Assembly: GCA_045587385.1 (NCBI GenBank)
Contig: JAZNCE010000120.1
Span: 45,085 to 109,084 of the forward strand
From: Eubacteriales bacterium
Lineage (GTDB): Bacteria > Bacillota > Clostridia > Oscillospirales > CAG-272
Direction of reading: 5' to 3'
Length of the DNA: 64,000 bases
In this document: one piece after another, positions 19,664-51,609 of the stretch
Layout of the letters: the number at the start of each line of letters is the position of its first letter
Position numbering within the stretch: position 1 is the first letter of the stretch
Translations under genes and position numbers: made by a program
Notes under the pieces: model-generated
Seen by the model: only the letters and a program-made list of their open reading frames with translations
Databases searched by the model: none
Told to the model about the DNA's origin: nothing

Positions 19664-20635
19664 TTAGTTTGCAGGTCTCGGTCTATCGGTTACTTCTTCT
19701 CCACCTTCATTGAACTCATCAAAGACCGTTCCGTAATCTACGTGATCCATATTGATATCAGCAATCTCAATTAGCCAATTCAGATCCTCCTCGGCAAATC
19801 CTTCAAAATAGTTTGTTCCTTTCCAACGAAGCTGCTTATAGTATGGGTCAAACAACATCTCGACTGACGTACCGTTTTCAAATTCCATCGTTACTTTTCT
19901 TTGAGTTTGAATGGAAAGAGGAAGTGTACCATTTAGATATTTCTCACTATGATGATCGATGCGCTCGGAAAAAGTGATCTCTGTGTCAATCAAAGCACCG
20001 AAAACATTAAACAGCTTTTCGATCTGCTCATCATCGGTTACGGTTACGGTGTTGACCTTTACCATTTTATAATAATCTTTGTTGGAGTAGATTGCTTTCT
20101 CAAACTTTACGCTCTTAATATCATCTGCGCTCTTCACGTTGAAGATGTTTTCAAGCAAGTAACCGAAGCTGAAGGGCTCTGCACCCTTTTCCCAATAGTT
20201 CATATCAGAGAACCGGAGCAAATGGATAACACCATCATTAGTTACTGCGATAAGCTGAGCTATATCGTCGTGCCCTTTGAGCTTGTAGAGCTTCTGCGTT
20301 TCTGTTTCAAGATACAAGTCACCGATCTTGCTCTCAAGGGTGAGCTTGTCAAAGTTGCTCATATCGTTCACATGTAAATATGATGCACAGTAAACATCAT
20401 CAAGCTTTATAGAGGTATAAATTGCCGCTTGATCACTCGTTCCCAATCCCGGAACAAACAGCCACAGCGAAGCACTTACGAGCAGAGCAAAGCAAGCCGC
20501 CATCGACGCCCACTTCACCCAAGTGCGCTTTTTCGGTTTCTTTTTTGCTGCGAGATCTGCTTTCATATCGAAATAACGGTCAAGAATGTCCGAATCCAGA
20601 TCTGTAATAGCATCTATGAGTTTTTCTTGTGTCAT
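19664..20635 (-). CDS. membrane-anchored putative anti-sigma factor with a unique extracytoplasmic domain (pair 1)
   Basis: 323 aa with an ATGA overlap to the upstream sigma gene. The N-terminal motif LIDAITDLDSDILDRY is shared with the two other anti-sigma candidates. It has a single TM (WASMAACFALLVSASLWLFV). The C-terminal roughly 250 aa are unassigned. Confidence 0.5.
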   Translation of the reverse strand: MTQEKLIDAITDLDSDILDRYFDMKADLAAKKKPKKRTWVKWASMAACFALLVSASLWLFVPGLGTSDQAAIYTSIKLDDVYCASYLHVNDMSNFDKLTLESKIGDLYLETETQKLYKLKGHDDIAQLIAVTNDGVIHLLRFSDMNYWEKGAEPFSFGYLLENIFNVKSADDIKSVKFEKAIYSNKDYYKMVKVNTVTVTDDEQIEKLFNVFGALIDTEITFSERIDHHSEKYLNGTLPLSIQTQRKVTMEFENGTSVEMLFDPYYKQLRWKGTNYFEGFAEEDLNWLIEIADINMDHVDYGTVFDEFNEGGEEVTDRPRPAN

Positions 20636-21222
20636 ACTATATAACCCTCACTTTCAAGTTGCTTTTTGAGTCCAATTTTGATTGCTTCGATCTCTCGCTT
20701 GACGGTAGAAACGCTACAGCCGAGTTCCTTGCTGATTGTCGAAATGGGATCGGAAATATAATATCGGCTGACGAAAATGAACATTTGTCTGTCGGGGAGT
20801 GATCTGACGAAATTACTTATGCTTTTGGCGAGTTGTTTGGTTTCTATTTCTGCGGTCATATCGCCATCATCTGCTATGAAATCTTCAAGCTCGGAAAGCG
20901 AAACCGTGAATTCCGATGCGATACGCTTTTGACGTTTGTTTGCTCTGAATCGGTCGATTGCCGTTCTCCGCATAATTGATCCGAGAAACGCCTGTAATGC
21001 CACGGGTCTTGCCGGAGGGATCGCATTCCAAGTACCGATATATGTATCGTTCAGACATTCCTCGCTATCACACATATCGTGGACAATGTTCATCGCCACC
21101 GAAAGCAAGAACTTTTTGTACTTGATGTCGGTTTCCTTGATTGCCTGCTCGTCACGTTGCCAATATAGATCAACGATCTTCTCGTCACTCATAACAGAGT
21201 TCGCTTTTGTTTGAAGTTCCAT
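20632..21222 (-). CDS. sigma-70 family (ECF-like) RNA polymerase sigma factor, paralog 1
   Basis: 196 aa. Region 2 reads LYWQRDEQAIKE...DSEECLNDTYIGTW, and the region-4 HTH reads ISTISKELGCSVSTVKREI. A GGAGG RBS is present. Confidence 0.85.
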   Translation of the reverse strand: MELQTKANSVMSDEKIVDLYWQRDEQAIKETDIKYKKFLLSVAMNIVHDMCDSEECLNDTYIGTWNAIPPARPVALQAFLGSIMRRTAIDRFRANKRQKRIASEFTVSLSELEDFIADDGDMTAEIETKQLAKSISNFVRSLPDRQMFIFVSRYYISDPISTISKELGCSVSTVKREIEAIKIGLKKQLESEGYIV

Positions 21223-51028: not shown

Positions 51029-51609
51029 ACCGTGTAGCCCTCCTTTTCCAGTGCACTTTTCAAGGAAGTCCTGATGTAGGCAACGTCTGCATTGACAGTA
51101 GAGCGGGCAACGCCAAGCACCTGCGCGATCTCGTCAAGAGGTTGCGCATCGTAATAACGGGCAAAGAATACGTATCTCTTTCGTTCGTCCAGCGTGCGCA
51201 GCCATGCGCTGATCACCTCGGCAAGCTGCGCTGCATCACTTTCGGTGTAATCATCGCCATCCTCAAGGGCATATCCCTGCAGATCCTCAAAGGATGCAAC
51301 AAAGCATGGCGGTATGCTCTTTTTGCGGTGCTTTTGACGGTAACGGTCAATTGCCTGATTACGCATGATGCTGCCAACAAATGCTTGCAGCACGCGCGGA
51401 CGTTTGGGCGGAATGGCATTCCACGTGTCTAAATAGGTATCGTTGAGGCATTCCTCACTGTCCTGCATATCCTGCAGGATATTATATGCTGTTTTGAGCA
51501 GATAGCTGCGATATTTGATGTCCGTATGCTTGATCGCGGCTTCATCCCGCGCCCAATACAGCTCAATGATCGCTTCATCGCTGAGCATATAGCTGTTTTC
51601 TTGCTTCAT
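51025..51609 (-). CDS. sigma-70 family (ECF-like) RNA polymerase sigma factor, paralog 3
   Basis: 194 aa: LYWARDEAAIKH...DSEECLNDTYLDTW, HTH LDEIAQVLGVARSTVNADV. Confidence 0.85.
   Translation of the reverse strand: MKQENSYMLSDEAIIELYWARDEAAIKHTDIKYRSYLLKTAYNILQDMQDSEECLNDTYLDTWNAIPPKRPRVLQAFVGSIMRNQAIDRYRQKHRKKSIPPCFVASFEDLQGYALEDGDDYTESDAAQLAEVISAWLRTLDERKRYVFFARYYDAQPLDEIAQVLGVARSTVNADVAYIRTSLKSALEKEGYTV

Follow-up and report, generated by a model that had tools for sequence, protein, structure and literature searches.

The 64-kb stretch of contig JAZNCE010000120.1 analysed here (the window), from a member of the Eubacteriales, carries three two-gene modules, each composed of a gene for an extracytoplasmic function (ECF) sigma factor and a gene for a single-pass membrane protein, its partner. 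We consider it likely that these modules are self-contained and probably autoregulated switches, in which the partner acts as a type-II (N-in) membrane anti-sigma factor and the sigma is released by regulated proteolysis. Comparison with related modules indicates that the sigma, the cytoplasmic tail of the partner and the promoter behave as one inherited unit, and that cassettes encoding the transmembrane (TM) helix and the ectodomain have been exchanged between such units, apparently by recombination in a conserved segment encoding W-x-K/R-W-A-S-x-A-A-C. The basic pairing of a sigma with a partner is ordinary for ECF systems. What adds interest is the tail family, the breadth of unknown sensors and the fact that sensors have recently been exchanged in frame at a fixed joint. 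The genes, and the parts of partner 1 on which much of the argument turns, are the following.

20632 to 21222, minus strand: sigma 1, ECF-type, 196 amino acids (Sigma70_r2 E 4e-11; Sigma70_ECF; TIGR02937 68 bits)
20528 to 20635, minus strand: cytoplasmic tail of partner 1, residues 1-36, the proposed sigma-binding part, with two helices predicted at low confidence
20456 to 20527, minus strand: TM helix of partner 1, residues 37-60, with MAA as its XAA motif
19664 to 20455, minus strand: ectodomain of partner 1, residues 61-323, alpha/beta, no known relative (core pLDDT ca. 90)
45172 to 45747, minus strand: sigma 2, ECF-type, 191 amino acids (Sigma70_r4_2 E 1e-10; r2 E 1e-7; TIGR02937 71 bits)
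43721 to 45175, minus strand: partner 2, 484 amino acids (LRR_5 E 1e-49, two stretches)
51025 to 51609, minus strand: sigma 3, ECF-type, 194 amino acids (Sigma70_r2 E 9e-9; r4 E 7e-8; TIGR02937 67 bits)
48692 to 51028, minus strand: partner 3, 778 amino acids (LRR_5 E 5e-135, five stretches)

The open reading frames and proteins of the window were examined with BLASTP, tblastn, Pfam and NCBIfam. A sequence-only reading of this DNA, made before any database search, had placed the three sigma and three partner genes exactly where we find them, all on the minus strand, and had called the sigmas paralogous. They are so along their full length (45.6-51.3% pairwise identity; BLASTP E 5e-56 to 2e-68), and the two motifs that it had picked out, LYW(A/Q)R(D/N)E.AIK..D.KY and DSEECLNDTY, are seen in all three; tblastn found no fourth copy in the window. 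The assignment to the ECF type also stands: Pfam recognizes Sigma70_r2, r4 or r4_2, and Sigma70_ECF in each of them and gives no match to sigma region 3 or region 1, leaving only the sigma2 and sigma4 domains, their lengths of 191-196 amino acids fall within the ca. 170-220 characteristic of ECF factors, and the scores of 67-71 bits against TIGR02937 (the sigma70-ECF superfamily model) are all over its cutoff of 42.9 bits. No narrower NCBIfam subfamily or equivalog model scored above cutoff for the three proteins, SigL and SigW are their distant relatives in the PDB, and an exact-sequence lookup of the sigma genes returned no recorded match. At all three junctions the sigma and partner genes overlap by ATGA, as had been described, with a ribosome-binding site (GAGGG or GGAGG) preceding each overlap inside the 3' end of the sigma gene.

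The three partners do share the N-terminal motif, the basic run and the single TM helix attributed to them, and behind these their ectodomains differ, as had also been claimed. Partner 1 (323 amino acids) has no Pfam or NCBIfam match. Its structural model (overall predicted local distance difference test score, pLDDT, of 76) has helices at residues 3-10, 15-31 and 37-60, the last being the TM helix, and an alpha/beta ectodomain that is well modelled; for this model Foldseek found no meaningful neighbour in the PDB (best E 0.26, TM-score <=0.13). Partners 2 and 3 carry BspA-type leucine-rich repeats (LRR; Pfam LRR_5) and are 33% identical to each other over ca. 470 amino acids (E 2e-75). They also have in common a feature that the sequence-only reading had overlooked, a helical juxtamembrane region of ca. 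100 amino acids, with the consensus NW[IV]EWKF...GTDDSVIDK.QSMQ...LGDFL..LYEYY.KHKD, and an acidic linker before the repeats. In partner 2 the tail (residues 1-42) is followed by the TM helix (43-67), the juxtamembrane region (68-176), the acidic linker (177-205) and BspA-type LRRs to the C-terminus; in partner 3 the order is the same, with the tail at 1-40, the TM helix at 41-66, the juxtamembrane region at 67-164, a linker rich in E and P at 165-200 and then a long LRR array. The array varies in length, since the orthologs of partner 3 range from 467 to 778 amino acids. The model of partner 2 shows the tail, the TM helix, juxtamembrane helices at low confidence, a disordered linker and an LRR solenoid at residues 240-460 with pLDDT >90. 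The low confidence of the juxtamembrane part reflects a shallow alignment, as a homolog search with residues 1-176 gave only 3 clusters.

This layout is not a matter of chance: other genomes show it again, in about 110 modules at 78 loci. With sigma 3 as the query, 1122 homolog clusters were found at E<=1e-10, all of ca. 195 amino acids, and an alignment of 18 sequences has D(S/C)EECLNDTY as an invariant stretch among other conserved positions. The scan for relatives took one genome per species and gave 467 confirmed relatives, from which 78 loci were retained (labelled here with L numbers). All of these are metagenome-assembled genomes (MAGs) of Clostridia, Eubacteriales or Oscillospiraceae, and the samples named in record titles are all of ruminant gut, from yak, sheep, goat, deer or buffalo. 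Nearly all of the ca. 110 sigma copies are followed, with a 4-nt overlap, by a partner of 119-776 amino acids with the same N-terminal layout. In a set of 96 partners, the cytoplasmic tails are net acidic, have a median of 41 amino acids (35-43 in most) and end in about six K/R residues just before the membrane; the uncharged stretch that follows has a median of 23 residues, and some three residues into it lies an XAA motif (92 of the 96). These dimensions agree with the proposal that the partners are single-pass N-in proteins, unlike typical signal-peptide proteins, and we read the partner N-terminus as a predicted type-II membrane anchor and not as a typical Sec signal peptide. In public records the partners are called "hypothetical" or "leucine-rich repeat domain-containing," never anti-sigma.

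The proposal that the three window modules belong to an expanding family needs qualification. The family does have many modules elsewhere, but the three copies here are old paralogs, each with much closer kin in other species (identity up to 97%). Arrays of 3-4 modules per 5-12 kb are common among the related loci, for example four modules in 12 kb in L007 and three each in L008, L009, L066, L071 and L079-L081; in L079-L081 several small unannotated genes also lie between and after the modules. The ectodomains of the family fall into at least 28 groups unrelated by BLAST. Among 20 representatives compared with Pfam there was no match except two below threshold, to the solute-binding SBP_bac_1 (E 4e-4, L027:2253-3887) and to the Ig-like Big_14 (E 1e-3, L066:4476-5753), which hint at what some sensors may bind.

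The evidence that sigma and tail form a functional unit is evolutionary, and comes from the way in which the parts of the modules vary together. In sequence clusters, the type of sigma predicts the type of tail almost fully (adjusted Rand index, ARI, 0.83-0.95; homogeneity 0.97-1.0), and between sigma type and ectodomain type the ARI is ca. 0.2. Sigma identity is correlated with tail identity (Spearman 0.51, Mantel p 0.005), with sigma2 and sigma4 domains weighing about equally. The case of sigma 1 is the clearest. Eight other species-level MAGs contain relatives of it with 85-97% identity, and residues 1-48 of the partners of these relatives show 86-95% identity; past the middle of the TM helix there is no detectable similarity among these partners, whose lengths go from 167 to 343 amino acids. 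This one sigma cluster has one tail type and eight ectodomain types, to which a metagenome scan adds two more. Similarly, a protein search with partner 1 yields ca. 40 clusters that match over the full length and ca. 80 more that match only the first 15-23%. The reverse situation exists as well, with one ectodomain found behind two different tail/sigma types. L057 (6582-7190) and L071 (6558-7589) have polytopic membrane domains joined to the sigma1-type tail, so that the "sensor" cassette can also be an integral membrane protein. The swapping of sensor domains suggested from the window alone is therefore real, and wider than was proposed. At least one unit, that of sigma 1, has spread recently between species. 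Its 90%-identity cluster in public data has 498 members, that of sigma 2 has 10, and these sizes fit a wide horizontal spread of the sigma 1 block. The sequence-only reading knew of no experimental work on LRR ectodomains as anti-sigma sensors, and our full-text literature searches turned up neither an LRR-bearing anti-sigma factor nor any report of an LRR array fused to an anti-sigma tail; a further search that included "domain shuffling" found nothing describing ectodomain exchange behind a fixed tail.

The modules are also closed units of transcription. Strong hairpin terminators flank modules 2 and 3 on both sides and module 1 has one directly upstream; bracketed in this way, the modules are insulated two-gene operons. 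The regulatory elements are as follows.

21351 to 21386, minus strand: hairpin terminator of mntP, 5' border of module 1 (16-bp stem, then T-run)
21324 to 21353, minus strand: housekeeping-type promoter of module 1, TTGAAA, 18 nt, TG-n-TATAAT (extended -10; 11 of 12 consensus positions plus TG)
21265 to 21294, minus strand: ECF-like promoter of module 1, -35 GTGAGCC, 17-nt spacing, -10 CGACTAT (near-invariant across 9 sigma1-type loci)
45778 to 45808, minus strand: ECF-like promoter of module 2, -35 CCGTACAC, 18-nt spacing, -10 CATCTAT (kept in L001, L002, L004, L006)
43685 to 43716, no strand assigned: hairpin terminator closing module 2 (14-bp stem; called on the plus strand by the scan)
51641 to 51671, minus strand: ECF-like promoter of module 3, -35 GTCGGACG, 17-nt spacing, -10 CGTCTAT (kept in L001-L006)
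48654 to 48678, minus strand: intrinsic terminator closing module 3 (11-bp stem with 9 GC pairs, T-run, 14 nt past the stop codon)

The hairpin that closes module 2 lies 5 nt past the stop codon of partner 2, between convergent genes. The extended -10 of the housekeeping-type promoter of module 1 reads TGTTATAAT, and TGnTATAAT is kept upstream of many modules at other loci. Each paralog has its own predicted bipartite ECF-like promoter, conserved across species, with -35 cores GAGC, GTAC and GGAC, a spacing of 17-18 nt and -10 elements CGAC, CATC and CGTC-TAT for modules 1, 2 and 3, respectively. Bacillus ECF promoters are of the AAC-N16-17-CGTC type, which the elements described here resemble. 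In the whole window the full element occurs solely ahead of the three sigma genes, an arrangement that would be expected for autoregulation; a further match, GGAC-N16-CGTCT at 2232-2208, was discarded as a regulon promoter because its frequency is at chance level. We also observed that nearly all modules of the family have a conserved (A/G)TGAAGG 8-9 nt past the -10, near the expected transcription start (21245-21259, 45763-45773 and 51626-51636 in the window, minus strand). It is ATGAAGG in module 1 (9 nt downstream of the ECF-like -10, to 21245) and GTGAAGG in modules 2 and 3, and in many modules it is extended to TGAAGGGCCTTTCA. A leaderless mini-ORF (open reading frame) starting at this motif was considered and set aside, as frame and length vary between modules.

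Insulated two-gene operons with no other promoter target found nearby could also mean that the partner itself is the main output. The partners would then be plain surface proteins, such as adhesins, each under a private sigma, and their N-terminus would be only a signal anchor or long signal peptide that does not inhibit the sigma. The usual annotation of BspA-type LRR proteins is as adhesins, the HupY/LrrG adhesin models of NCBIfam match in part, and there is a possible V-S-A signal-peptidase motif inside the hydrophobic stretch of partner 1. We nevertheless find this explanation improbable. A cleavable Sec signal has a short basic n-region, an h-region of ca. 10-18 amino acids and an AxA cleavage site; a tail of ca. 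41 amino acids with a conserved acidic motif is unlike such n-regions, and the hydrophobic stretch behind it has the length of a TM helix. Some partners with the same tail (L057 and L071) end in polytopic membrane domains and are not secreted cargo. The tail has stayed with its sigma through at least 10 ectodomain replacements, nearly unchanged beside unrelated ectodomains, and this is hard to square with a mere targeting signal.

As anti-sigma switches, the modules might work in the following way, in which we infer all the steps from ligand binding to sigma release. The tail of ca. 35-40 amino acids (two short acidic helices, then the basic run) would bind its own sigma and keep it at the membrane. 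Binding of an external ligand by the ectodomain, be it an LRR solenoid or another fold, would allow a cleavage outside the membrane, either by signal peptidase as for RsiV or by another site-1 protease. A site-2 protease would then cut in the TM helix and expose the conserved XAA motif as a ClpXP degron, as in RsgI and RsiW; with the tail degraded, the freed sigma would transcribe its own operon from the paralog-specific promoter and a regulon elsewhere in the genome. There are precedents for the separate steps. In RsiV, the DUF4179 region comprises the TM helix and amphipathic helices with the site-1 cut by signal peptidase, which is unmasked by ligand binding (PMC6066255), the XAA motifs in the TM helices of RsgI are ClpXP degrons after RseP cleavage (PMC12203970), and the class II anti-sigma domain is a two-helix clamp around sigma2 and sigma4, found in CnrY and NepR (PMC6101532). 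The tail does not reach the length of a class I anti-sigma domain but has the size of the class II clamp.

Several observations weigh against this reading. Binding of the tail to the sigma, and with it the anti-sigma activity, is something that we infer from the obligatory translational coupling and the co-divergence of sigma and tail, and the co-divergence may in part reflect simple physical linkage. The tail matched none of the known anti-sigma domain families above threshold, and a PDB sequence search with the tail profile returned TM-helix noise and no relative. Weak matches to DUF4179 exist (26 of 101 tail+TM segments, at 12-16 bits and at profile positions 1-44 only), but they cover the basic run and the TM helix and not the tail. 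The two tail helices of partner 1 are modelled at low confidence (pLDDT 48-59). Finally, promoter scans found no regulon member in the window or, with relaxed criteria, in ca. 840 kb of related loci, where the matches were scattered and unconvincing, so that any output beyond the operon itself is hypothetical.

Some of the same evidence would also suit a partner with the opposite sign. The coupling and the co-divergence fit any specific interaction between sigma and tail, activating or inhibiting, and class I anti-sigma domains are longer than the tail; the partner might therefore be a positive regulator, a pro-sigma or a tether comparable to the N-terminal part of FecR-type regulators, whose tail activates or stabilizes the sigma. 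We regard this as quite unlikely, as Pfam found no similarity to FecR-type domains, and both the architecture and the position of the XAA degron match those of the inhibitory Firmicutes anti-sigmas RsiV, RsiW and RsgI (PMC6066255, PMC12203970).

Taken as membrane anti-sigma switches, the modules have a working principle that seems to resemble that of SigV-RsiV and of the SigI-RsgI paralog sets. With SigV-RsiV, of group ECF30 (PMC6066255), they share an ECF sigma co-transcribed with a single-pass protein that has a short N-terminus, a basic run and one TM helix, CGTC-type -10 promoter elements and, as proposed here, an ectodomain that is a direct ligand receptor. They differ in that DUF4179 is never at its gathering cutoff (30.1 bits) and has no match at all in the three window partners, and in that the ectodomains are LRRs or orphan folds, with no lysozyme-binding domain (DUF4163 or DUF3298). 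As in the SigI-RsgI systems of Clostridium thermocellum (PMC10328401, PMC12203970, PMC6582324), there are many paralogous pairs per genome in Clostridia, each with its own promoter specificity, and the partners have a short conserved N-terminal part, a TM helix with XAA, a conserved juxtamembrane region (partners 2 and 3) and interchangeable sensors. However, the sigmas are not SigI proteins but canonical ECF factors whose sigma4 domain is normal, carbohydrate-binding modules are not among the sensors, and Pfam found no RsgI_N in the partners. Sequence inspection found no Asn-Pro pair common to the juxtamembrane regions of partners 2 and 3; in RsgI this pair is reportedly the autoproteolysis motif. 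We know of no description of a recent between-species sensor exchange at the TM joint for RsgI.

The likeness to other anti-sigma classes is more limited. Class I domains (RsiW, RseA, ChrR, RskA; zf-HC2) have ca. 80-90 amino acids in a three-helix bundle plus a fourth helix, often with HxxxCxxC, unlike a tail of 35-43 residues, and Pfam detected neither zf-HC2 nor RskA domains in the partners. With class II (CnrY/NepR) the tail shares a short cytoplasmic part and, in the low-confidence model of partner 1, two helices; sequence similarity is absent, and the class II proteins are from Proteobacteria whereas the modules are from Firmicutes. The two LRR_5 stretches of partner 2 (where the solenoid is modelled) and the five of partner 3 are those of BspA-type surface proteins, but here the array is preceded by an anti-sigma-like tail and a TM anchor, and there is translational coupling to a sigma gene. 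In terms of membership, then, the sigmas are ECF sigma factors and partners 2 and 3 are BspA-type LRR proteins, and the partners belong neither to class I nor to the DUF4179/RsiV or RsgI_N families.

Module 1 allows the exchange to be followed at the nucleotide level, and is a recent mosaic. Two of its segments are essential here.

20490 to 21348, minus strand: conserved mobile block that takes in the two promoters, sigma 1 and codons 1-48 of partner 1 (94-96% nucleotide identity to six genomes)
20490 to 20544, minus strand: recombination joint, the DNA for W-V-K-W-A-S-M-A-A-C, with which the TM helix starts; the type-A and type-B tracts of homology overlap here

The block (860 bp) matches L017, L023, L026, L030, L057 and L071, with no homology between its flanks and those six genomes. 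On the 5' side the homology starts at 21348, just past the terminator hairpin of mntP. The block has a synonymous divergence (dS) of 0.14-0.18; for hisZ, compared between the window and the syntenic relatives nearest to it, dS is 1.0-1.3. These relatives, L024 and L035, have hisZ, grpB and mntP on one side and the gene for a lipoprotein of 1149 amino acids on the other, at ca. 80% nucleotide identity, and hold a different module at the site of module 1. The homology to L024 ends inside the sigma gene (window position 20859, about codon 121), and that to both relatives restarts at 19396. The part of partner 1 that comprises the TM helix and ectodomain (19663-20544) has a separate history: its homologs mostly follow another tail (beginning MTNKEFYREFGNIDPKMIEAAAPAEKV) and a sigma of 184 amino acids from a distant subgroup, and in L080 the first ca. 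240 nt after the joint are 98-100% identical to partner 1. The conserved joint segment is ca. 35 nt long, and a core of 33 nt is 94% identical to the joint of a third module in L080 and L081. Module 1 is not the product of a local duplication; it arrived at its site by replacement and recombination. Carriage by phages was considered and dropped, as neither the mobile block nor the sigma family was found on the viral contigs searched.

It is very unlikely that the mosaic was created by misassembly of metagenome data over a shared repeat: although the sequences compared are all MAG or metagenome contigs, and a block of 860 bp at ca. 95% identity could in principle mislead an assembler, the blocks are not identical but 4-6% apart, at every junction the frame is intact and the open reading frame full-length, the breakpoints are at one single protein position, and the same fusions are found repeatedly, on independent contigs and in samples from ENA, Logan, NCBI and JGI (P0186 on 12 contigs, the 201-amino-acid type in 5 loci).

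The genes around the modules are ordinary metabolic ones: mntP, grpB and his genes next to module 1, and elsewhere uxuA, KDPG aldolase, a PfkB kinase, an alpha-L-fucosidase and a class II aminoacyl-tRNA synthetase. The fucosidase gene (45872-46840, minus strand) ends just upstream of the module 2 promoter, and the genes for uxuA, KDPG aldolase and PfkB kinase (40064-43670, plus strand) are found downstream of partner 2; the LRR sensors could possibly be linked to the use of glycans. Just after the terminator of module 3 there is a perfect TTGACA-17-TATAAT promoter with TG (48604-48632), and behind it, at 46845-48570 on the minus strand, three tandem paralogous genes for proteins of ca. 190 amino acids with a hydrophobic stretch near the N-terminus, two of which end in KFFTY(K/N); none has a Pfam match. 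Convergent with module 1 (15952-19344, plus strand) is the gene for the predicted lipoprotein of 1149 amino acids (beginning MKRLLPFLLALLLLLPCLAAC), also devoid of Pfam matches and 81-82% identical in L024 and L035. Farther away, at 12001-14000, the G+C content falls to 0.42 (ca. 0.50 for the whole window) and both GC and AT skew turn positive.

One tentative idea, which we put forward with more doubt than confidence, is that the joint segment (W-x-K/R-W-A-S-x-A-A-C, ca. 35 nt) has been selected as a "universal joint" by which insulated terminator-promoter-sigma-tail cassettes, mobile between species, capture new TM+sensor cassettes in frame. If this were true, it would be a natural plug-and-play rewiring of external cues to sigma regulons, with a logic comparable to C-terminal displacement in polymorphic toxin loci, and the sensor repertoire of ruminant-gut Clostridia would consist of LRRs and many unknown folds.

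ECF sigma/anti-sigma pairs make up a major signalling device of bacteria, and in uncultured gut Clostridia most of them, and nearly all of their sensors, are unannotated. This locus and its relatives define a family of anti-sigma-like tails that has no Pfam model and is tied to at least 28 ectodomain types, BspA-type LRR arrays among them. They amount to a natural rewiring experiment, with one sensor behind two sigma/tail units and one unit before at least 10 sensors. The pattern of exchange shows where chimeric anti-sigmas can be joined and still be kept by selection, which is useful for the construction of orthogonal biosensors and for the study of how signalling specificity evolves, and the predicted paralog-specific promoters can be used to find the regulons of these sigma factors.

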